Part shown: positions 3,659-56,582 of the stretch, piece after piece
Numbering within the stretch: the first letter of the stretch is position 1
Layout of the letters: the number at the start of each line of letters is the position of its first letter
Assembly (NCBI GenBank): GCA_964016885.1
Contig: OZ024740.1
Coordinates: forward strand, 183,706,001 to 183,770,000
DNA: 64,000 nt
DNA from: Eledone cirrhosa
Taxonomy: Eukaryota
Direction: 5' to 3'
The notes under the pieces: generated by a model
Database searches by the model: none
Told to the model about the DNA's origin: nothing
What the model saw: the letters and a program-made list of their open reading frames with translations, nothing else
Position numbers and translations under genes: made by a program

Positions 3659-3845
3659 TGTGAATTGGCAGTATCTGTAGAGGGTCGGACGCCAGGCTTT
3701 CTAGCATAGTTACGTCCCTTTACGGTCTGAATTCAAATCCCGCCGAGATTAACTTTGCCTTTCATCCTTACGGGGTCGATAAAATAAAGTATCAGTAATG
3801 TACTGGGTTTTGCTGGCCTTGTGCCAAAAGTAGAAACAATTATTA
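3659..3845 (+). mobile_element. tRNA-derived SINE
   Basis: A-box-like TGGCAGTATCTGTAG, B-box-like GAATTCAAATCC, central TTTGCCTTTCATCCTTACGGGGTCGATAAAATAAAGTA, tail GGCCTTGTGCCAAAAGTAGAAAC followed by ATT-like repeats; near-identical copies at 10585, 59752 and 60171. Confidence 0.8.
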
Positions 3846-4666: not shown

Positions 4667-4707
4667 TTTTATCTGATGATTTTGTATTCGAAATAAGTAT
4701 AATAAAA
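4667..4707 (+). ncRNA. Degenerate minimal hammerhead ribozyme motif
   Basis: TTTTAT-CTGATGA-(weak stem II)-GAAA-TAAGTA-TA-ATAAAA; downstream sequence resembles that of the 13788 motif. Confidence 0.4.
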
Positions 4708-7519: not shown

Positions 7520-7563
7520 ACCGTCCTGACGAAGGTCAGTCAATCCTGAAATGCATAGACGGT
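7520..7563 (+). ncRNA. Minimal type I hammerhead ribozyme
   Basis: ACCGTC-CTGACGA-AGG..CCT-GAAA-TGCA-TA-GACGGT; palindromic ATGCAT stem III, AUA site. Confidence 0.85.
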
Positions 7564-27221: not shown

Positions 27222-28195
27222 GATAAATCTACCAAGAGTTTACGGTAGTGTCCAATCCGTATGAAGAACTCAATGTATTCCGGATATCATGGAAAGAAGA
27301 GATGTAATGAAAAATCACTTTCGGTGAAAGATAAACGGTATACAGAGTCAAGATAAAATATTAAACAAATAATGAATAAACAATGAAACAGTTCCTTATA
27401 TTAAACAAAAAAAGTTCATTATTTAACGATCGTTTCTAGGATATATATGTGTTAGAATTGGCATGCATATTCAACAGATCTATGTACAAAATTATACAAA
27501 ATTATACAAACTATCAAGATTAAATATACATACCAACACATATATACGCCGTCTTCAGAAATAATGAAATATATTTATTGATAATAACAACAATTCAAAA
27601 TTTCAGGTCCGTTTGGGAACAAAATTGACCAATGAAAATACAAAAGGTTTAATGCAGTTCGGTGTGTGTATATACATGTAACTACCCTTACACATATTTT
27701 ACAAAAATGTATGCACAACTTGTATACGCATACCAAAAGGATGGATGCAAATACAAAATTTCAAGGTTAATGTCTCTGTAAGTTTATAATGCACAGATAA
27801 GATGCGTATAGACACATAAATATGAAATAAATGTATACACATATTTTCATACTCACACATATCCGTACAATCACACACACACGCGCGTATATGCATAAAC
27901 ATACACATAACTACGAACATACAAACACACACACACCCCCACTCACATATATATATGTGGATATAAAATCCTAAGCACATGGATATTAATTCACTCACAT
28001 AAACACTGGCACACACATTTAGATCAAGATACAGAAATTAGGTGGGAGGGGGGGAGAGGTCAGTATTCAACGGTTTGGGCAGACTGCTTAATATAGATGT
28101 ATCTATAAACTAAGAAAATAAAAAATAATAAATAATAAATAAACATTAAAAAGGAAAGAAAAGAAAAAGAAAAAAGAAAAAAGAAATATATCAAG

Positions 28196-37335: not shown

Positions 37336-37489
37336 TTCATTATTTCTGAAGACGGCGTATATATGTGTTGGTATGTATATTTAATCTTGATAGTTTGTAT
37401 AATTTTGTATAATTTTGTACATAGATCTGTTGAATATGCATGCCAATTCTAACACATATATATCCTAGAAACGATCGTTAAATAATGAA
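37336..37489 (+). ncRNA. PLE type I hammerhead ribozyme with ~115-nt stem II
   Basis: TTCATTATTT-CTGAAGA-(long hairpin)-GAAA-CGATCG-TT-AAATAATGAA; perfect 10-bp stem I, palindromic stem III, predicted cut after 37479. Confidence 0.8.
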
Positions 37490-37839
37490 CTTTTTTTGTT
37501 TAATATAAGGACCTGTTTCATTGTTTATTCATTATTTGTTTAATATTTTATCTTGACTCTGTATACCGTTTATCTTTCACCGAAAGTGATTTTTCATTAC
37601 ATCTCTTCTTTCCATGATATCCGGAATACATTGAGTTCTTCATACGGATTGGACACTACCGTAAACTCTTGGTAGATTTATCTACATAATTTTTGCTCCT
37701 ATTTTCACGGAAATATTCGTATTTTTGTACTGTATGTGTGTATTAATTTTATATTTATGTATATACATATATATGTATGATTTTATAAACCCATATACAT
37801 TTAGTTGAGCTCTTTCAATTGTCCATCATCCATATCACA

Positions 37840-40281
37840 ATGGAAAAACAATATTTGGGAACCTCTTTAAAAAACATACCAATACCTTCTAAGGATGACT
37901 TCTTACTCCTTATGATTCAAAAAACTAATAATTTTATCAGAAGGGTTAGATGGAGAGCCTACCACTTCGATAGAAAATCTAAACAAGCAGATCGGAAATA
38001 TATGTATGATTTCAATACCTACAAGAATCCACCACACAACTTTTTACTTGAAGACTTCGAGAAAGACCTTTTTAATTTAATTAAACACCTCAAATTTAAA
38101 AAGTATAAATCCGTCTTTCAAAAGGACCTTGATTCTACCCTATTGGACCTAAAAAAGTCTAAAAAAATCCATGTCCACTCGGACAAAACTGGTAACTTGT
38201 ATCATATGGATATTGAACATTATAATGAGTTCATATATAAAGAACTCAGAAAAAATTATAAAAAATCTAATAATGCGTCACTCACCAACATCAACAACAA
38301 AACACACAACATAGTAAAAAAACTAAACATTGAAGATAGAACTGAACCTTTGGCATTGAAAAGACCACACTTCAACCTGAAGGATCATAAATCAAACTTT
38401 AACTCAAATCCTTCTATTAGACTTATATGTCCCTCCAAATCAGATATTGGAATAATTAGCAAAAAAATTTTGGATAGAGTCATCCCACAAATAAGAAAAC
38501 ACGTTATTTTACCACTCTGGGAAAACACCTCCCAGGTAATTAACTGGTTTAAAAATATTAGATGTAAATCTTCTGCTTCTTTTCTACAATTTGATATAGA
38601 TAATTACTATTCTTCTATATCACCTATACTCCTGAACAAAGCATTGATATTTGCTAAAAATAGATCTAACTTAACTTTGGATGACATTAATATTATTACA
38701 CATGCTAGACTAACACTTATTGAATTTCAGAATGAATACTGGACCAGAAACACATATAGTAATCTATTTGATATTACTATGGGTTCAAGCGATTCCGCCC
38801 AAATTACTGATCTTGTGGGCCTCTTTCTCCTTTTCAACATAAATGCCTCCTTTCCCCACCTCAAAGGTGGTTTATATCGTGATGACTGTCTTCTTCTTTC
38901 TAACAACCTTAGCCTTTCAGAAATTGAAAAAAACAAAAAACATATTAGAACTTTCCTTAAAGACTATTATAATCTTAATATTACTTTTGAAAAAACAAGT
39001 AAAGTAGTAAATTTCCTAGATATAACTTTAGATTTAGCTACGGGTATCTACCAACCTTACCATAAACCAAACCAAAACTTACATTACATACACTCACAAT
39101 CTAATCACCCTAAATCTATCCTTAAAAACCTTGCATATAATATATCACTTAGAATTTCTAACCTTTCTTCTAACCAAGATGTATTTGATAAAAATGCGAC
39201 CTTCTATAACGAAGCTCTAGATAGAAGTGGCCACAAAAATAGATTAGAATATATACCTTCTACTAAAAATACTGAAAGCATACAACCTAATATTACCAAC
39301 AAACACCAAATGAAAAGTACACACCTAAATGCCACCCACACTATACCCCAAAATACCAAATCTTCTAATATAAAGTATAGTAACTCTCAAAAAACTACTC
39401 ATCATACAACTCTAATAAATATTAATAATAAAACTCCTAATAAAAAGGATAAAACACCTAAATCTACAAATATAACTAAAAATGGTTGTGGTGAGATCAT
39501 TAACATTAATCCTCCTAGTAAAAATCACGATACAACATATAAAAATAATAAAAATAATAAACAACATAGAAACCGTAATAGACGGGTTACTTGGTATAAT
39601 GCTCCATTTAATTTACAAATTAAGGATAATATTGCTAAACAATTTTTTTATATCCTAGAGAAAAACTTCCCGCCAAACCACAAATACCATCAAATCTTAA
39701 ATAGGTCTACAGTTAAATTCTCATACTCTACAACAAATAACATAAAACAAAATATAAGTGCCTATAATGCATATAAATGTAAGAAAACCATAAGTATACC
39801 ACCAGTACATCAAATTAACCATAATATCTCCTCAAATACAGAATTAACGAAAGGTTGTAACTGTAGAAACAAAGCAAACTGCCCATTAAAAGGGAATTGT
39901 CTTGTTAACAACATAGTCTATAAATGTAATGTTAAAACTAAAGATTCTATTTGCTCATATATAGGAGCTACCTCTAACAATTTTAAGACAAGGTTTAATA
40001 CCCACAAGCATAGTTTTAAAAATGCCGCACTGGCTAATACAACATCTCTAGCAGAAAAAATCAATAGTTATAAAAATAAGAATATAGAATATGATTTGAC
40101 CTGGAGTGTGCTCAAAAGAGCCACCCCTTATCAAAATAATAGAAATGAATGTAGATTATGTTCCCAAGAACTATTTGAAATAATGAAATCTAAGGATATC
40201 CTATTAAATAAACGACAGGAATTAATTATATCGTGTAATCATAAACTAAAAAAAACATTTAAATATTATAAACCTAATTAA
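37840..40281 (+). CDS. PLE RT + GIY-YIG polyprotein, copy 2
   Basis: Intact ORF; differs from copy 1 by S->N in KTG(S/N)LY; track start TTG 37819. Confidence 0.95.
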   Translation: MEKQYLGTSLKNIPIPSKDDFLLLMIQKTNNFIRRVRWRAYHFDRKSKQADRKYMYDFNTYKNPPHNFLLEDFEKDLFNLIKHLKFKKYKSVFQKDLDSTLLDLKKSKKIHVHSDKTGNLYHMDIEHYNEFIYKELRKNYKKSNNASLTNINNKTHNIVKKLNIEDRTEPLALKRPHFNLKDHKSNFNSNPSIRLICPSKSDIGIISKKILDRVIPQIRKHVILPLWENTSQVINWFKNIRCKSSASFLQFDIDNYYSSISPILLNKALIFAKNRSNLTLDDINIITHARLTLIEFQNEYWTRNTYSNLFDITMGSSDSAQITDLVGLFLLFNINASFPHLKGGLYRDDCLLLSNNLSLSEIEKNKKHIRTFLKDYYNLNITFEKTSKVVNFLDITLDLATGIYQPYHKPNQNLHYIHSQSNHPKSILKNLAYNISLRISNLSSNQDVFDKNATFYNEALDRSGHKNRLEYIPSTKNTESIQPNITNKHQMKSTHLNATHTIPQNTKSSNIKYSNSQKTTHHTTLININNKTPNKKDKTPKSTNITKNGCGEIININPPSKNHDTTYKNNKNNKQHRNRNRRVTWYNAPFNLQIKDNIAKQFFYILEKNFPPNHKYHQILNRSTVKFSYSTTNNIKQNISAYNAYKCKKTISIPPVHQINHNISSNTELTKGCNCRNKANCPLKGNCLVNNIVYKCNVKTKDSICSYIGATSNNFKTRFNTHKHSFKNAALANTTSLAEKINSYKNKNIEYDLTWSVLKRATPYQNNRNECRLCSQELFEIMKSKDILLNKRQELIISCNHKLKKTFKYYKPN

Positions 40282-41602
40282 TAACATTATTTTAGAAATT
40301 AATTTAATTTAAATGTTAGTTAACCTATAAATTTAATTTTAATTTAATTAAAATTCTATTACAGATGAGAATATAAAATATTATGTAATCATAAATTGTG
40401 AAAAACCTTTAAATATTACTAATATATACTTAGTAATTTAATTTATAGATTAATTTTAATTTATTTAAACCTTTTATTATAATTCTTTTACAGATAAAAT
40501 ATAACAAAATATCGTGTATCCAATGACAGAGAAATAATTTTTAGTATTATAGACCTAATTAATATACATTTTAGAAATATATTTATAATTTGGTTTTAAT
40601 TTTAGTCAACCTAAAAATTTAATTTAATTGGCTTAAAATTAGTATCCTTATACAGACGAATTGCAGAATGTCATGTAATCATAGAATGGGATGTGTTTTG
40701 GATATATACCTAGTTAATATATTCTTTGCAATTTTTGAAAAAATATGTATATGTATATGTGTATGTGTATGTGTATGTGTGTGTATATGTGTATATATGT
40801 ATATATATATGTATATATATGTATATATATATGTGTATGTATATGTATATGTATATGTATTAATTTTGATTTCTATTTGCATATAATTATATTCTGCTTT
40901 TGATAAAATACAATATCTGTTTTATTTATTATATACCTAATTAACATATACTATAGAAATAAATATATAATTTTTAATTTAGTTAACCTATAATTTATAT
41001 TCTACTACCGATGTAATACTTTATTTGTTTTTTCCCTATTACTAAATTCATTTCCTAATATTGATACCATAACGTTATTAACTTTAATTTAGTTATACTA
41101 TAATTAATACTCTACTACTATTTAACTTCAAAATTCTGCTTCAAATATTATAAACCTAACTAATTTACACCTTAGAAATCAATATGTTAACTATCTTTAG
41201 TTTAGTTAACATATAATTAAGGGTATACTTATTTATTTTGAAATGCATAAATTTTGCCTTATTTCTTGTTTATTGTATTTCCTAACACTGAAACTATGTA
41301 AAAACATACATTGGATCCAGATACGGATAATATTCTATGTTTCTTGAAACATATATTTACTATAATCCCCTTCTCACCCCCCCCCCTTTCCCCCATACTA
41401 TTATCATCTGTGTTTGTAAGCGTGTATGTATGAATATATATGTAGGTAGGTGTATATATGTTTGGGTATTTATATCTGAATATAAAAATACATATATGCG
41501 CATGCAAATAAGAATGTAAGATTGTGTGTGTATATATATGTGTGTATGTATGTGTATGTGTGTATATATGCATGTGTATATATATGTGTATGTGTATGTG
41601 TG

Positions 41603-41657
<55 letters not shown>

Positions 41658-41910
41658 ATGTATGTATGTATATGTGTGTGTGTATATATATGTATGTCTC
41701 TCTATTTATATGTCTATCTTCGTATCTATGTGGATATATGTGTGTGTGTGCATGTATACACATATATGTGTTTATGTGTATATGTGTGTATGTGTATATA
41801 TGTGTGTGTGCACACACATATATATGTGAGTGTGTATGTGTGTGTGTGTATATGTATGTGTATATATATATATATATATATATCTATGTGTGTATATGTG
41901 TCTATATTAG

Positions 41911-41957
<47 letters not shown>

Positions 41958-42540
41958 TATTTATTATTATAATATAACTTATGTGTATGTGTGTATATGT
42001 GAGGGTGTGTATATGTATATATATGTGTATATATATGTGTAAAAAAATATATATGTGCATGTCTGTTTTTTATGTGTGTGTATATATATATATATGTGTA
42101 TATATATGTATATGTGGGTGTTTGTATGTGTATTTATGGTTGTATGTGTGTGTGGGTATATATATATAAGTGTATGTGTATATATATATATATATATATG
42201 TGTATATATATCTCTATTAATGCGTGTATATATGTATATGTTTATGCCTTTTTCTTTGTATGTCTGAGTTGGGTGAGGGTGTAGTGGTGTTTCTATGTAT
42301 ATACGCATATATGAATGCGTATGTATTTGTATATATGAGTATATGTAAGTGCGTATGTATGTATGAATATATATCTAATTCTATGTATGAGTATATATGT
42401 GTGTATGTATGTTGTGTGTGTATGTATGTATATGTCTATGTGTGTATATATATATGTATGTATGTGTGTGTATGTATCTATGTATGTGTATGTATGTACA
42501 TATATGTCTATGTATGTGTGTATGTATATGTATGTGTATA

Positions 42541-42579
<39 letters not shown>

Positions 42580-42775
42580 TTATTTTATATATATGTGTGT
42601 GTCTGTATGTGTGTGTGTGTGTGTATATATATCTTTATATATGTGTATGTGTATGTTCGTGTAGGTGTATGTGTGTGTATGACTATATATGTATGTGTGT
42701 ATGTGTGTATGTGTATATATATCTATGTGTGTGTACATGTATGTATGTGTATGTATGTGTATGTGTGTATATGTG

Positions 42776-42846
<71 letters not shown>

Positions 42847-43124
42847 GTTTCTCTATTTCTATATGTATATGTGTATAGCTATATACCTTTTTCTTTGTAT
42901 GTCTGAGTTGTGTGAGAGTGTAGTGGTGTTTGTATGTATATACCGATATATAGATGCGTAAGTATTTGTCTGTATGTATGTATGTATGTCTGTATGTATT
43001 TGTGTGTATATATAGGTATGTATGTGTATATCTGTATGTATATAAGTATGTAAGTGTATGTATAAGTGCGTGTATGTGTGTATATATATGTGTGTCTATA
43101 TAGTATGTGTGAGTATATGTGTAT

Positions 43125-43200
<76 letters not shown>

Positions 43201-43328
43201 ATTTATATGTATGTGTGTATATGTATGTATGTGTGTATATGTATATGTTTATATATGTGTGTGTATGTATGTTCTAAGTGTGGATGTGTGTATATGTATG
43301 TATGTGTTTGTATATGTGTATATATGTG

Positions 43329-43382
<54 letters not shown>

Positions 43383-44007
43383 CTTGATATATTTCTTTTT
43401 TCTTTTTTCTTTTTCTTTTCTTTCCTTTTTAATGTTTATTTATTATTTATTATTTTTTATTTTCTTAGTTTATAGATACATCTATATTAAGCAGTCTGCC
43501 CAAACCGTTGAATACTGACCTCTCCCCCCCTCCCACCTAATTTCTGTATCTTGATCTAAATGTGTGTGCCAGTGTTTATGTGAGTGAATTAATATCCATG
43601 TGCTTAGGATTTTATATCCACATATATATATGTGAGTGGGGGTGTGTGTGTGTTTGTATGTTCGTAGTTATGTGTATGTTTATGCATATACGCGCGTGTG
43701 TGTGTGATTGTACGGATATGTGAGTATGAAAATATGTGTATACATTTATTTCATATTTATGTGTCTATACGCATCTTATCTGTGCATTATAAACTTACAG
43801 AGACATTAACCTTGAAATTTTGTATTTGCATCCATCCTTTTGGTATGCGTATACAAGTTGTGCATACATTTTTGTAAAATATGTGTAAGGGTAGTTACAT
43901 GTATATACACACACCGAACTGCATTAAACCTTTTGTATTTTCATTGGTCAATTTTGTTCCCAAACGGACCTGAAATTTTGAATTGTTGTTATTATCAATA
44001 AATATAT

Positions 44008-44161
44008 TTCATTATTTCTGAAGACGGCGTATATATGTGTTGGTATGTATATTTAATCTTGATAGTTTGTATAATTTTGTATAATTTTGTACATAGATCT
44101 GTTGAATATGCATGCCAATTCTAACACATATATATCCTAGAAACGATCGTTAAATAATGAA
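44008..44161 (+). ncRNA. PLE hammerhead ribozyme, unit 2
   Basis: Same sequence as 37336-37489. Confidence 0.8.
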
Positions 44162-44511
44162 CTTTTTTTGTTTAATATAAGGACCTGTTTCATTGTTTAT
44201 TCATTATTTGTTTAATATTTTATCTTGACTCTGTATACCGTTTATCTTTCACCGAAAGTGATTTTTCATTACATCTCTTCTTTCCATGATATCCGGAATA
44301 CATTGAGTTCTTCATACGGATTGGACACTACCGTAAACTCTTGGTAGATTTATCTACATAATTTTTGCTCCTATTTTCACGGAAATATTCGTATTTTTGT
44401 ACTGTATGTGTGTATTAATTTTATATTTATGTATATACATATATATGTATGATTTTATAAACCCATATACATTTAGTTGAGCTCTTTCAATTGTCCATCA
44501 TCCATATCACA

Positions 44512-46953
44512 ATGGAAAAACAATATTTGGGAACCTCTTTAAAAAACATACCAATACCTTCTAAGGATGACTTCTTACTCCTTATGATTCAAAAAACTAA
44601 TAATTTTATCAGAAGGGTTAGATGGAGAGCCTACCACTTCGATAGAAAATCTAAACAAGCAGATCGGAAATATATGTATGATTTCAATACCTACAAGAAT
44701 CCACCACACAACTTTTTACTTGAAGACTTCGAGAAAGACCTTTTTAATTTAATTAAACACCTCAAATTTAAAAAGTATAAATCCGTCTTTCAAAAGGACC
44801 TTGATTCTACCCTATTGGACCTAAAAAAGTCTAAAAAAATCCATGTCCACTCGGACAAAACTGGTAACTTGTATCATATGGATATTGAACATTATAATGA
44901 GTTCATATATAAAGAACTCAGAAAAAATTATAAAAAATCTAATAATGCGTCACTCACCAACATCAACAACAAAACACACAACATAGTAAAAAAACTAAAC
45001 ATTGAAGATAGAACTGAACCTTTGGCATTGAAAAGACCACACTTCAACCTGAAGGATCATAAATCAAACTTTAACTCAAATCCTTCTATTAGACTTATAT
45101 GTCCCTCCAAATCAGATATTGGAATAATTAGCAAAAAAATTTTGGATAGAGTCATCCCACAAATAAGAAAACACGTTATTTTACCACTCTGGGAAAACAC
45201 CTCCCAGGTAATTAACTGGTTTAAAAATATTAGATGTAAATCTTCTGCTTCTTTTCTACAATTTGATATAGATAATTACTATTCTTCTATATCACCTATA
45301 CTCCTGAACAAAGCATTGATATTTGCTAAAAATAGATCTAACTTAACTTTGGATGACATTAATATTATTACACATGCTAGACTAACACTTATTGAATTTC
45401 AGAATGAATACTGGACCAGAAACACATATAGTAATCTATTTGATATTACTATGGGTTCAAGCGATTCCGCCCAAATTACTGATCTTGTGGGCCTCTTTCT
45501 CCTTTTCAACATAAATGCCTCCTTTCCCCACCTCAAAGGTGGTTTATATCGTGATGACTGTCTTCTTCTTTCTAACAACCTTAGCCTTTCAGAAATTGAA
45601 AAAAACAAAAAACATATTAGAACTTTCCTTAAAGACTATTATAATCTTAATATTACTTTTGAAAAAACAAGTAAAGTAGTAAATTTCCTAGATATAACTT
45701 TAGATTTAGCTACGGGTATCTACCAACCTTACCATAAACCAAACCAAAACTTACATTACATACACTCACAATCTAATCACCCTAAATCTATCCTTAAAAA
45801 CCTTGCATATAATATATCACTTAGAATTTCTAACCTTTCTTCTAACCAAGATGTATTTGATAAAAATGCGACCTTCTATAACGAAGCTCTAGATAGAAGT
45901 GGCCACAAAAATAGATTAGAATATATACCTTCTACTAAAAATACTGAAAGCATACAACCTAATATTACCAACAAACACCAAATGAAAAGTACACACCTAA
46001 ATGCCACCCACACTATACCCCAAAATACCAAATCTTCTAATATAAAGTATAGTAACTCTCAAAAAACTACTCATCATACAACTCTAATAAATATTAATAA
46101 TAAAACTCCTAATAAAAAGGATAAAACACCTAAATCTACAAATATAACTAAAAATGGTTGTGGTGAGATCATTAACATTAATCCTCCTAGTAAAAATCAC
46201 GATACAACATATCAAAATAATAAAAATAATAAACAACATAGAAACCGTAATAGACGGGTTACTTGGTATAATGCTCCATTTAATTTACAAATTAAGGATA
46301 ATATTGCTAAACAATTTTTTTATATCCTAGAGAAAAACTTCCCGCCAAACCACAAATACCATCAAATCTTAAATAGGTCTACAGTTAAATTCTCATACTC
46401 TACAACAAATAACATAAAACAAAATATAAGTGCCTATAATGCATATAAATGTAAGAAAACCATAAGTATACCACCAGTACATCAAATTAACCATAATATC
46501 TCCTCAAATACAGAATTAACGAAAGGTTGTAACTGTAGAAACAAAGCAAACTGCCCATTAAAAGGGAATTGTCTTGTTAACAACATAGTCTATAAATGTA
46601 ATGTTAAAACTAAAGATTCTATTTGCTCATATATAGGAGCTACCTCTAACAATTTTAAGACAAGGTTTAATACCCACAAGCATAGTTTTAAAAATGCCGC
46701 ACTGGCTAATACAACATCTCTAGCAGAAAAAATCAATAGTTATAAAAATAAGAATATAGAATATGATTTGACCTGGAGTGTGCTCAAAAGAGCCACCCCT
46801 TATCAAAATAATAGAAATGAATGTAGATTATGTTCCCAAGAACTATTTGAAATAATGAAATCTAAGGATATCCTATTAAATAAACGACAGGAATTAATTA
46901 TATCGTGTAATCATAAACTAAAAAAAACATTTAAATATTATAAACCTAATTAA
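44512..46953 (+). CDS. PLE RT + GIY-YIG polyprotein, copy 3
   Basis: Intact ORF; private K->Q (TYQNN); track start TTG 44491. Confidence 0.95.
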   Translation: MEKQYLGTSLKNIPIPSKDDFLLLMIQKTNNFIRRVRWRAYHFDRKSKQADRKYMYDFNTYKNPPHNFLLEDFEKDLFNLIKHLKFKKYKSVFQKDLDSTLLDLKKSKKIHVHSDKTGNLYHMDIEHYNEFIYKELRKNYKKSNNASLTNINNKTHNIVKKLNIEDRTEPLALKRPHFNLKDHKSNFNSNPSIRLICPSKSDIGIISKKILDRVIPQIRKHVILPLWENTSQVINWFKNIRCKSSASFLQFDIDNYYSSISPILLNKALIFAKNRSNLTLDDINIITHARLTLIEFQNEYWTRNTYSNLFDITMGSSDSAQITDLVGLFLLFNINASFPHLKGGLYRDDCLLLSNNLSLSEIEKNKKHIRTFLKDYYNLNITFEKTSKVVNFLDITLDLATGIYQPYHKPNQNLHYIHSQSNHPKSILKNLAYNISLRISNLSSNQDVFDKNATFYNEALDRSGHKNRLEYIPSTKNTESIQPNITNKHQMKSTHLNATHTIPQNTKSSNIKYSNSQKTTHHTTLININNKTPNKKDKTPKSTNITKNGCGEIININPPSKNHDTTYQNNKNNKQHRNRNRRVTWYNAPFNLQIKDNIAKQFFYILEKNFPPNHKYHQILNRSTVKFSYSTTNNIKQNISAYNAYKCKKTISIPPVHQINHNISSNTELTKGCNCRNKANCPLKGNCLVNNIVYKCNVKTKDSICSYIGATSNNFKTRFNTHKHSFKNAALANTTSLAEKINSYKNKNIEYDLTWSVLKRATPYQNNRNECRLCSQELFEIMKSKDILLNKRQELIISCNHKLKKTFKYYKPN

Positions 46954-50686: not shown

Positions 50687-50840
50687 TTCATTATTTCTGA
50701 AGACGGCGTATATATGTGTTGGTATGTATATTTAATCTTGATAGTTTGTATAATTTTGTATAATTTTGTACATAGATCTGTTGAATATGCATGCCAATTC
50801 TAACACATATATATCCTAGAAACGATCGTTAAATAATGAA
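50687..50840 (+). ncRNA. PLE hammerhead ribozyme, unit 3
   Basis: Same sequence as 37336-37489. Confidence 0.8.
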
Positions 50841-51190
50841 CTTTTTTTGTTTAATATAAGGACCTGTTTCATTGTTTATTCATTATTTGTTTAATATTTT
50901 ATCTTGACTCTGTATACCGTTTATCTTTCACCGAAAGTGATTTTTCATTACATCTCTTCTTTCCATGATATCCGGAATACATTGAGTTCTTCATACGGAT
51001 TGGACACTACCGTAAACTCTTGGTAGATTTATCTACATAATTTTTGCTCCTATTTTCACGGAAATATTCGTATTTTTGTACTGTATGTGTGTATTAATTT
51101 TATATTTATGTATATACATATATATGTATGATTTTATAAACCCATATACATTTAGTTGAGCTCTTTCAATTGTCCATCATCCATATCACA

Positions 51191-53632
51191 ATGGAAAAAC
51201 AATATTTGGGAACCTCTTTAAAAAACATACCAATACCTTCTAAGGATGACTTCTTACTCCTTATGATTCAAAAAACTAATAATTTTATCAGAAGGGTTAG
51301 ATGGAGAGCCTACCACTTCGATAGAAAATCTAAACAAGCAGATCGGAAATATATGTATGATTTCAATACCTACAAGAATCCACCACACAACTTTTTACTT
51401 GAAGACTTCGAGAAAGACCTTTTTAATTTAATTAAACACCTCAAATTTAAAAAGTATAAATCCGTCTTTCAAAAGGACCTTGATTCTACCCTATTGGACC
51501 TAAAAAAGTCTAAAAAAATCCATGTCCACTCGGACAAAACTGGTAACTTGTATCATATGGATATTGAACATTATAATGAGTTCATATATAAAGAACTCAG
51601 AAAAAATTATAAAAAATCTAATAATGCGTCACTCACCAACATCAACAACAAAACACACAACATAGTAAAAAAACTAAACATTGAAGATAGAACTGAACCT
51701 TTGGCATTGAAAAGACCACACTTCAACCTGAAGGATCATAAATCAAACTTTAACTCAAATCCTTCTATTAGACTTATATGTCCCTCCAAATCAGATATTG
51801 GAATAATTAGCAAAAAAATTTTGGATAGAGTCATCCCACAAATAAGAAAACACGTTATTTTACCACTCTGGGAAAACACCTCCCAGGTAATTAACTGGTT
51901 TAAAAATATTAGATGTAAATCTTCTGCTTCTTTTCTACAATTTGATATAGATAATTACTATTCTTCTATATCACCTATACTCCTGAACAAAGCATTGATA
52001 TTTGCTAAAAATAGATCTAACTTAACTTTGGATGACATTAATATTATTACACATGCTAGACTAACACTTATTGAATTTCAGAATGAATACTGGACCAGAA
52101 ACACATATAGTAATCTATTTGATATTACTATGGGTTCAAGCGATTCCGCCCAAATTACTGATCTTGTGGGCCTCTTTCTCCTTTTCAACATAAATGCCTC
52201 CTTTCCCCACCTCAAAGGTGGTTTATATCGTGATGACTGTCTTCTTCTTTCTAACAACCTTAGCCTTTCAGAAATTGAACAAAACAAAAAACATATTAGA
52301 ACTTTCCTTAAAGACTATTATAATCTTAATATTACTTTTGAAAAAACAAGTAAAGTAGTAAATTTCCTAGATATAACTTTAGATTTAGCTACGGGTATCT
52401 ACCAACCTTACCATAAACCAAACCAAAACTTACATTACATACACTCACAATCTAATCACCCTAAATCTATCCTTAAAAACCTTGCATATAATATATCACT
52501 TAGAATTTCTAACCTTTCTTCTAACCAAGATGTATTTGATAAAAATGCGACCTTCTATAACGAAGCTCTAGATAGAAGTGGCCACAAAAATAGATTAGAA
52601 TATATACCTTCTACTAAAAATACTGAAAGCATACAACCTAATATTACCAACAAACACCAAATGAAAAGTACACACCTAAATGCCACCCACACTATACCCC
52701 AAAATACCAAATCTTCTAATATAAAGTATAGTAACTCTCAAAAAACTACTCATCATACAACTCTAATAAATATTAATAATAAAACTCCTAATAAAAAGGA
52801 TAAAACACCTAAATCTACAAATATAACTAAAAATGGTTGTGGTGAGATCATTAACATTAATCCTCCTAGTAAAAATCACGATACAACATATAAAAATAAT
52901 AAAAATAATAAACAACATAGAAACCGTAATAGACGGGTTACTTGGTATAATGCTCCATTTAATTTACAAATTAAGGATAATATTGCTAAAAAATTTTTTT
53001 ATATCCTAGAGAAAAACTTCCCGCCAAACCACAAATACCATCAAATCTTAAATAGGTCTACAGTTAAATTCTCATACTCTACAACAAATAACATAAAACA
53101 AAATATAAGTGCCTATAATGCATATAAATGTAAGAAAACCATAAGTATACCACCAGTACATCAAATTAACCATAATATCTCCTCAAATACAGAATTAACG
53201 AAAGGTTGTAACTGTAGAAACAAAGCAAACTGCCCATTAAAAGGGAATTGTCTTGTTAACAACATAGTCTATAAATGTAATGTTAAAACTAAAGATTCTA
53301 TTTGCTCATATATAGGAGCTACCTCTAACAATTTTAAGACAAGGTTTAATACCCACAAGCATAGTTTTAAAAATGCCGCACTGGCTAATACAACATCTCT
53401 AGCAGAAAAAATCAATGGTTATAAAAATAAGAATATAGAATATGATTTGACCTGGAGTGTGCTCAAAAGAGCCACCCCTTATCAAAATAATAGAAATGAA
53501 TGTAGATTATGTTCCCAAGAACTATTTGAAATAATGAAATCTAAGGATATCCTATTAAATAAACGACAGGAATTAATTATATCGTGTAATCATAAACTAA
53601 AAAAAACATTTAAATATTATAAACCTAATTAA
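51191..53632 (+). CDS. PLE RT + GIY-YIG polyprotein, copy 4
   Basis: Intact ORF; private substitutions EIEQ, IAKK, INGY; track start TTG 51170. Confidence 0.95.
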   Translation: MEKQYLGTSLKNIPIPSKDDFLLLMIQKTNNFIRRVRWRAYHFDRKSKQADRKYMYDFNTYKNPPHNFLLEDFEKDLFNLIKHLKFKKYKSVFQKDLDSTLLDLKKSKKIHVHSDKTGNLYHMDIEHYNEFIYKELRKNYKKSNNASLTNINNKTHNIVKKLNIEDRTEPLALKRPHFNLKDHKSNFNSNPSIRLICPSKSDIGIISKKILDRVIPQIRKHVILPLWENTSQVINWFKNIRCKSSASFLQFDIDNYYSSISPILLNKALIFAKNRSNLTLDDINIITHARLTLIEFQNEYWTRNTYSNLFDITMGSSDSAQITDLVGLFLLFNINASFPHLKGGLYRDDCLLLSNNLSLSEIEQNKKHIRTFLKDYYNLNITFEKTSKVVNFLDITLDLATGIYQPYHKPNQNLHYIHSQSNHPKSILKNLAYNISLRISNLSSNQDVFDKNATFYNEALDRSGHKNRLEYIPSTKNTESIQPNITNKHQMKSTHLNATHTIPQNTKSSNIKYSNSQKTTHHTTLININNKTPNKKDKTPKSTNITKNGCGEIININPPSKNHDTTYKNNKNNKQHRNRNRRVTWYNAPFNLQIKDNIAKKFFYILEKNFPPNHKYHQILNRSTVKFSYSTTNNIKQNISAYNAYKCKKTISIPPVHQINHNISSNTELTKGCNCRNKANCPLKGNCLVNNIVYKCNVKTKDSICSYIGATSNNFKTRFNTHKHSFKNAALANTTSLAEKINGYKNKNIEYDLTWSVLKRATPYQNNRNECRLCSQELFEIMKSKDILLNKRQELIISCNHKLKKTFKYYKPN

Positions 53633-56428: not shown

Positions 56429-56582
56429 TTCATTATTTCTGAAGACGGCGTATATATGTGTTGGTATGTATATTTAATCTTGATAGTTTGTATAATTTTG
56501 TATAATTTTGTACATAGATCTGTTGAATATGCATGCCAATTCTAACACATATATATCCTAGAAACGATCGTTAAATAATGAA
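56429..56582 (+). ncRNA. PLE hammerhead ribozyme, unit 4
   Basis: Same sequence as 37336-37489. Confidence 0.8.

Follow-up and report, generated by a model that had tools for sequence, protein, structure and literature searches.

The window analyzed here, a stretch of 64,000 nt from the Eledone cirrhosa genome, contains a composite insertion at 27216-56644 that consists of an inverted arm and a partial tandem. The partial tandem comprises four near-identical ORF-bearing units of 6.67 kb, the first of which begins at the equivalent of 37760 and is devoid of the hammerhead motif discussed below; the inverted arm is 5'-truncated and spans 27216 to about 31089. Both outer ends of the insertion lie in (TA)n, the left end (27216) being equivalent to 37688 and the right end of the array (56644) to 37551. 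The hammerhead motif is located at 37336-37489 on the forward strand and recurs on the same strand in the next tandem unit (44008-44161, with the ORF frame 44461-46953 downstream), at 50687-50840 (with the ORF frame 51140-53632 downstream) and in the terminal repeat (56429-56582), and on the reverse strand in the inverted left arm (27415-27568). All five copies are identical over 154 nt, in agreement with the count given in an earlier note on this DNA, which was made from the sequence alone; given that the five copies belong to one composite insertion, they do not represent independent evidence.

Downstream of the first copy, 360 nt past the predicted cut site, begins an intact ORF (37840-40281, forward strand; 813 aa from the first methionine) that encodes a reverse transcriptase (RT), a CxCx5C linker and a GIY-YIG-type endonuclease. 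The RT and the C-terminal endonuclease, combined in a single ORF, were read from the translation (YRDD and IVYKC...YIGAT); a Pfam search with the ORF protein yielded no significant hit, and the homologues of the ORF are 31-48% identical to it. Among the motifs characteristic of the Hydra clade, the ORF contains RWR, a variant of RWK that is also found in Hydra-1_Crog (PMC8557442), DKT in place of DKG and, as judged by eye, CNCRNKANC (the CxCX5C linker), CRLC (CxxC) and CNH (CxH), with no CCHH, and the published Hydra proteins appear on viewing to be collinear with it. As judged from these diagnostic protein motifs, set beside the published Hydra proteins by viewing, the element is a Hydra-clade Penelope-like retrotransposon (PLE). 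The insertion into (TA)n and the partial-tandem plus inverted structure are likewise Hydra-clade traits, whereas the 6.67-kb unit and the 115-nt stem II depart from the length of generally less than 3 kb and the canonical hammerhead of Hydra elements, which Craig et al. (2021, PMC8557442) give as descriptive rather than diagnostic traits. The 3' non-coding part of the unit (40282-44007, approximately 3.7 kb), which is rich in TA/TG microsatellites and contains internal repeats, is far longer than in the described Hydra elements, and a low-complexity, N/K/T-rich insertion of approximately 100 residues (residues ~475-580), absent in a 713-aa family of the same genome, separates the RT thumb from the linker. 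When the N-terminal 187 residues were compared with the E. cirrhosa genome, all 150 matches returned were 98-100% identical, most of them with an open 830-codon frame, so the family has been amplified recently. No related locus was detected in metagenome contigs.

The motif at 37336-37489 is a complete type I hammerhead in which every part is found where the earlier note placed it. The 5' arm of stem I (37336-37345) forms 10 Watson-Crick pairs with the 3' arm (37480-37489); the catalytic core C3-A9, CUGAAGA (CTGAAGA in DNA), occupies 37346-37352; stem II accounts for the 115 nt between A9 and G12 (37353-37467); G12-A15.1, GAAA, follows at 37468-37471; stem III is the palindrome ACGATCGT at 37471-37478; and U17 at 37479 completes a GUU site, with the predicted cut between 37479 and 37480. 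All positions of the type I core (C3-U4-G5-A6-N7-G8-A9, G12-A13-A14-A15.1, U16.1-H17) are present, and the three stems around the core, with stem I open, are backed by covariation (see below). The one departure is the first pair of stem II, 10.1-11.1, which is a C·A mismatch instead of the usual G-C, a pair that is highly conserved elsewhere but not invariant.

From the core outward, stem II consists of the C10.1·A11.1 mismatch, 2 bp, a conserved C·C mismatch, a long proximal helix and an inner helix with G-U pairs, with conserved GAT/ATC and TGTA/TACA pairs in the apical part and more than 30 predicted pairs altogether. The three G-U pairs that the earlier note assigned to a two-helix stem II were confirmed (37372/37442, 37376/37438 and 37382/37432), and two further ones lie near the core, but the two helices as originally drawn both claim the TT at 37368-37369, which only one of them can use. 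The sense strand folds into one long arm with a z-score of -5.2, compared with -1.8 for the antisense strand; the folding advantage of the sense strand, implied by that note, holds for this subfamily but not for L063, L120 and L130, in which the antisense folds as well as or better than the sense. Peripheral extension of a hammerhead stem is unsurprising in principle, and the extension of stem II, the terminal loop of which is far from the core, is probably tolerated because it points away from the core.

Searches of the standard kind overlook this variant, as had been anticipated. Rfam detected no hammerhead in the window either at the gathering score or at E<=10, so that the motif is not recognized by the Rfam models, and the core-only descriptor of Craig et al. 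(2021, PMC8557442) allows 7-17 nt between the core halves, and half-cores at 35-50 nt are noted in that study. The genome was searched with a pattern consisting of CTGANGA, a spacer of 95-125 nt and GAAACGATCGT, with the reversed pattern as the control. This search yielded 12,619 matches in the genome compared with 13 control matches, a thousand-fold excess, whereas spacers of 60-94, 8-59 and 126-160 nt gave 484, 181 and 148 matches, compared with 10, 14 and 15 in the respective controls; many of the matches outside the 95-125 nt range are deletion or duplication variants, and some belong to distinct families whose arms are unrelated. The patterns prescribed stem III, and different palindromes are present in other families.

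Conservation was analyzed in 99 copies recovered from the first 100 matches listed. Position 17, which is free in the pattern, is U in 59 of these, A in 38, C in 2 and G in none, and core position 7 varies among families (A, G, U, C). Among the matches listed, positions 2, 3 and 5-11 of stem II, counted inward from the core, are paired in 91-96 of the 99 copies, with G-U, A-U and G-C alternating at positions 2, 5 and 7 (at position 2, an alignment-free count gives G-U 56, A-U 29 and G-C 9), and two mismatches are themselves conserved, namely C·A at position 1 (90 copies; U-A in 6) and C·C at position 4 (93 copies). In 14 hand-chosen representatives, one per subfamily variant, 95.6% of the cells pair and 9 of the 45 pairs are changed on both sides, compared with 0-2 pairs in slid controls; because the rows are related, the shuffle control overstates the significance. 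Compensatory changes are seen across subfamilies in both stem I and stem II, and in other families stem I is swapped wholesale with the pairing kept. Given that most of the search patterns demanded the 5' half of the core, conservation of the core is only partly independent evidence; in rows anchored downstream, the core is intact in 28 of 40, and the remainder had no anchor match or a spurious one. The sequence of the apical part of stem II is conserved beyond the needs of pairing. The core and both stems are thus conserved, with covariation, in related families, the opposite of the lack of conservation that the earlier note named as grounds for giving up its reading, and the structure is very probably a selected hammerhead fold.

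Across the lineage, stem II measures 86-116 nt and is branched or composed of several helices, and its length is characteristic of this lineage. In a tree of 21 sequences recovered in this analysis, built on 204 residues of the RT, the window element groups with L341 (97-nt arm), L343 (104-nt arm) and L344 (arm not seen) in a clade with support of 100/98, the branch of L343 being inflated by a frameshift within the aligned stretch. Families that are approximately 43% identical over the whole protein have spacers of 20-23 nt. Several old families (L124, L125, L136, L153, L160, L218 and L220) fold no better than shuffled sequences; in the 97-nt family (L124, L125), stem II has z-scores of 0.0 and -1.3, and stem I does not directly adjoin the core. 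Approximately 9-10 unpaired bases lie between the 5' arm of stem I and the core in the 93-97-nt family (L124, L125, L155).

An 808-aa Hydra family that appeared empty in the CUGANGA scans turned out to possess, at a fixed place upstream of the ORF, a CCGAAGA core (a U4C change) with an 81-nt stem II; the suggestion that apparently ribozyme-less PLEs may hide a hammerhead is thereby borne out within this genome. The pattern CCGANGA with a stem II of 70-95 nt has 4,665 matches in the genome compared with 10 in the control, and these belong to several families with different arms. The U4C long-arm loci (L091-L107, e.g., L091 at 1121 on the minus strand, and L361-L372), which are linked to the 808-aa Hydra ORF, mostly have a stem I of 3-4 bp, and an 832-aa family (L106, L350) combines the U4C core with a 20-nt spacer. 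In the 713-aa Hydra family (L046:330-1520), the sense strand of the whole 1.15-kb tandem spacer contains no CUGANGA and only a doubtful CAGAAGA hairpin, so the motif is possibly dispensable; this family may be ribozyme-free or may carry a further degenerate version. Four additional short-stem type I hammerhead motifs, probably fragments of other PLEs, are found in the flank of the window at 4673, 7526, 7848 and 13796 (forward strand); those at 7526 and 7848 are similar and 322 nt apart, as in a retrozyme-like tandem.

The ends of the genomic copies provide information on the RNA from which they were made. Among 93 main-lineage copies, 46 extend farther upstream and 47 do not. Six of the latter bear the 3' end of a tRNA-type SINE at ATTATT, and where the 5' end of the SINE was captured, the element resumes upstream of it (3 of 3). 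A template jump as the source of this foreign leader at 37339 was therefore rejected; these are ordinary SINE insertions at ATTATT with target duplications, and accordingly the six cases were dropped from the count. Of the 41 truncated copies that remain, 36 begin within 37338-37346 and 14 exactly at 37339, with head-to-head pairs entered as two rows. The base at 37339 is the A in TCATT, a word resembling the initiator consensus, and 2,348 matches in the genome start at this base and are not preceded by C (a few of these are SINE cases). There is no significant excess of a cap-derived G before 37339 (10 of 56, compared with 2-10 at neighboring positions), so the position of the start is given by the junction pile-up. 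On this evidence, we infer that transcription starts at about 37339; in Penelope, an internal promoter resides in the pLTR (PMC2377424). The SINE itself is abundant, has an ATT-repeat tail and inserts with target duplications at ATTATT words, repeatedly at element position 37339 (L006, L112, L129, L183, L284; in the window, at 3837, 10770 and 60331).

At the other end, the 93 copies show two recurrent termini joined to (TA)n, with 32 stops at 37551 and 22 at 37688, 137 nt further on, and head-to-head pairs usually have one of each. By analogy with in vitro work on a PLE of the anole, 37551 and 37688 would be two RT start sites. Of 9,929 anchored copies, the first 100 were read by eye, and 96 of these run through the cut site; there is no pile-up of insertion ends at 37479 among the 93 main-lineage copies. 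A 5' end at 37480, which the earlier note expected, is not apparent from the genomic copies either: approximately 10 of the first 100 of 549 enriched matches begin there, and five of these are explained by stem I homology. Given that the copies run through the cut site, the templates must have been either uncut or re-ligated. Pieces of the element are also found in contigs of four sequencing runs (X4, X6, X7 and X8, from four studies, of unrecorded or uncertain kind); contigs of X6 end at 37339 and 37551 and those of X4 at 37551 and 37688, and these ends were kept out of the independent support.

Many insertions contain nothing but the terminal repeat, in the form of short head-to-head palindromes with the junction at approximately 37339 and with one arm ending at 37551 and the other at 37688 (examples are in genome contig C1 and at L068, L088, L121, L193, L194, L202, L203 and L215); these resemble small inverted-repeat elements, yet they are PLE products. 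Among the matches listed, there are also chimeras in which the first bases of the hammerhead of another PLE family are fused to the start of this one (C3:282502109, C6:12556938, C7:13627110), and short reiterations of the first 10-30 nt are seen among the matches with a 126-160-nt spacer. The chimeras and reiterations suggest template jumping at RNA 5' ends, including jumps between families.

Comparison with published hammerheads shows which features are expected and which are not. Given that hammerheads are reported to be universal in the Hydra clade, a group that has already been described (PMC8557442), a hammerhead at this position of the window is expected, but its size is not. Like the Hydra-clade hammerheads compiled by Craig et al. 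(2021, PMC8557442, File S2), the motif is of type I, lies on the sense strand near the 3' end of the element and has a short, palindromic or near-palindromic stem III; GUU, GUA and GUC sites, a frequent 10.1-11.1 mismatch (often U·U) and (TA)n insertion are common to both as well, and Penelope-17_HM has a similar TTCATTT stem I arm (PMC8557442). The difference is in the spacing of the core halves, which, counted from the published table, is approximately 12-26 nt in the listed Hydra motifs and at most approximately 50 nt in two spike-moss PLE-X motifs (PMC8557442), compared with 86-116 nt here. Stem II of the window motif is about five times as long as in the described relatives. The C10.1·A11.1 mismatch also occurs in PLE-X1_cBra, a Chara PLE (PMC8557442), and a U10.1-U11.1 start is reported as natural and tolerated (PMC3088659). 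The minimal PLE hammerheads of Cervera and de la Pena (2014, PMC4209133) have in common with the motif described here the weak palindromic stem III that implies a dimer, the low expected activity and the location in the pLTR, but have a helix II of 6-8 bp with a highly conserved G10.1-C11.1, in contrast to more than 30 predicted pairs and C10.1·A11.1. The earlier description of PLE hammerheads as minimal, with a short stem II, and dimeric is thus apt with respect to the weak palindromic stem III, which was correctly recognized, and the dimer, but the minimal part in that study is helix III, and helix II is larger than usual.

Two other systems are relevant to function, which is reported to be unclear for the hammerheads of endonuclease-bearing PLEs (PMC8557442). 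In the PAc Poseidon element of Anolis carolinensis (Frangieh et al., 2024, PMC11167929), the hammerhead cuts only in the presence of protein, the RNA used as the template is predominantly unprocessed, and in vitro work has demonstrated two RT start sites. As interpreted here, the window element resembles PAc in that a tail is delimited by two RT start sites located downstream of the hammerhead, the targets are AT-rich, uncut RNA serves as the template, and ends at the cut site are lacking in vivo, although PAc belongs to a different clade, its ORF starts inside the hammerhead rather than 360 nt after the cut site, and the tail is 137 nt in the window element compared with the 30-40 bp quoted for Penelope (PMC11167929). 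The type I hammerheads of chrysoviruses and fusariviruses (PMC13725137) are similarly positioned in the 5'-UTR and show no clear loop-loop contact, but have a longer helix III and a helix II that is considered 'long' at 6-8 bp; their cleavage enables cap-independent translation, and by analogy, such a role is possible for the window hammerhead.

The predicted energetics do not favor efficient cleavage. An RNA starting at 37339 keeps only 37339-37345 of the 5' arm of stem I, 7 nt that are all A or U, and the resulting stem of seven A-U pairs has a predicted energy of -1.1 kcal/mol, compared with -6.6 kcal/mol for the 10-bp form of a read-through transcript. Moreover, two duplicates of the 5' arm on the forward strand, at 37517-37526 (one difference) and 37528-37537 (exact), are predicted to sequester the 3' arm, with the exact copy pairing at -8.6 kcal/mol, and the predicted probability of stem I in the RNA from 37339 is <=0.03. 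A similar word is found just before the first terminus in related subfamilies and, in the 97-nt family, complements a different 3' arm; an equally good explanation of this word would be a role in the RT start signal. Stem III is predicted to have a 2-nt loop in the monomer, whereas the 8-bp intermolecular duplex of the palindrome is estimated at -10 kcal/mol.

These observations fit a scheme in which the RNA would begin at approximately 37339, with the motif as its first 151 nt. In the monomer, the active fold would be disfavored by the 7-bp all-AU stem I, the 2-nt loop III, the C10.1·A11.1 mismatch and the downstream decoy for the 3' arm, whereas an 8-bp intermolecular stem III would help it; given the mismatch and the weak stems, slow cutting assisted by dimerization or by protein is predicted. 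The cut after 37479 would then be made slowly, in a dimer or with the aid of the protein of the element, on a minority of transcripts, and the RNA that is continuous across the site would be what is copied into the genome. Cleavage would most likely serve to strip the capped leader from the RNA or to trim read-through transcripts, in which case it would affect turnover or translation and not the production of templates; the conserved apical part of stem II probably has an additional function, for example in protein binding or as promoter sequence. Under this model, cutting is likely slow, conditional and not needed for the template. The reading as a whole, a Hydra-PLE terminal-repeat type I hammerhead with a 115-nt stem II that cuts slowly and conditionally while continuous RNA serves as the template, appears to us reasonably probable.

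Several alternatives were considered. One is that the hammerhead has lost its catalytic activity and persists at the 5' end of the transcript as a structural RNA or promoter element, serving RT recognition or acting as an internal promoter. The templates that run through the site without a cut-site footprint, the predicted rarity of the active fold, the change of U4 to C in the sister group and the conservation of apical stem II beyond pairing needs would all be compatible with such a loss of activity. Still, position 17 is never G, position 7 is free, and stems I and III covary, which is the pattern that catalysis selects for, and the anole PLE likewise lacks a footprint in vivo yet cuts in vitro with protein (PMC11167929); we consider a dead descendant unlikely. 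Another alternative follows the model of Cervera and de la Pena (PMC4209133): the ribozyme would process tandem transcripts into unit-length RNAs and then close these into circles by ligation, and the circles would template head-to-tail arrays. A ligated circle would read through the site too, the 6.67-kb tandem units are near-identical, and stem I is stronger in the read-through copy (-6.6 compared with -1.1 kcal/mol as predicted); however, 37339 is the end of roughly half of the copies sampled, as expected of a linear RNA with its start there, and insertion ends show no pile-up at 37479, which makes circles quite improbable.

The extension of stem II might also be a retained 5'-UTR intron, with the donor GT at 37371 and the acceptor AG at 37423-37424 or further downstream, splicing of which would shorten or remove the ribozyme. 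Diverged subfamilies indeed share the conserved word TACATAG and either GTATGT or GTAAAT, and an intron in the 5'-UTR close to the start site is present in Penelope and Chlamys-3_cRei (PMC2377424 and PMC8557442). Given, however, that these words pair in a helix, their conservation is explained without splicing; an intron of 54 nt here and approximately 42 nt in other subfamilies would be very short, no precise splice product was found in the first 100 of 117 copies with a non-G donor base, and the U4C group has a long stem II without the GTATGT and TACATAG words, all of which renders an intron improbable. Finally, short motifs might have come together by chance in repeat DNA rich in A and T. 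In favor of this, the sequence has such a composition and all five copies belong to one insertion, but when a relaxed type I descriptor was applied to 300 Markov resamples of 41 kb, a 10-bp stem I was found in none and one of at least 7 bp in a single resample. Together with the thousand-fold genomic excess over the control, the covariation and a position expected of a Hydra hammerhead, this refutes chance, the probability of which is negligible.

The slow, conditional hammerhead is thus the reading we retain. PLE hammerheads, the dimer logic and the Hydra clade are already known. Relative to the literature searched, in which we found no long, covarying stem II of 70-116 nt in PLE hammerheads nor its pairing with U4C, the new features are the covarying 70-116-nt stem II and, in a sister group, the occurrence of a long arm together with U4C, although longer variants may have been described by Lunse et al., whose study deals with variants of the PLE hammerhead, or by Arkhipova et al. 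(2017). A broader conjecture, which we regard as possible if rather doubtful, is that Hydra PLEs hold a hidden class of regulated hammerheads with a stem II of 70-116 nt, more than 17,000 motifs in one genome and some of them with U4C, that are located at the very start of the transcript and silenced by a downstream decoy near the RT start site until activated by the protein of the element or by a second transcript.

Length-limited descriptors, in any case, can miss thousands of motifs in a single genome. The element described here is intact, very abundant and represented by multiple subfamilies, and from its genomic copies, the putative sites of transcription start, cleavage and RT initiation (two of the latter) can be placed within 350 nt; among its close relatives, side-by-side comparison is possible between natural forms with a short stem, a long stem or U4C and forms that seem to lack the ribozyme. 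If the hidden regulated class is real, the loss of ribozymes in PLEs has been overestimated, and the long arm would serve as a module with a function of its own instead of being tolerated as filler.
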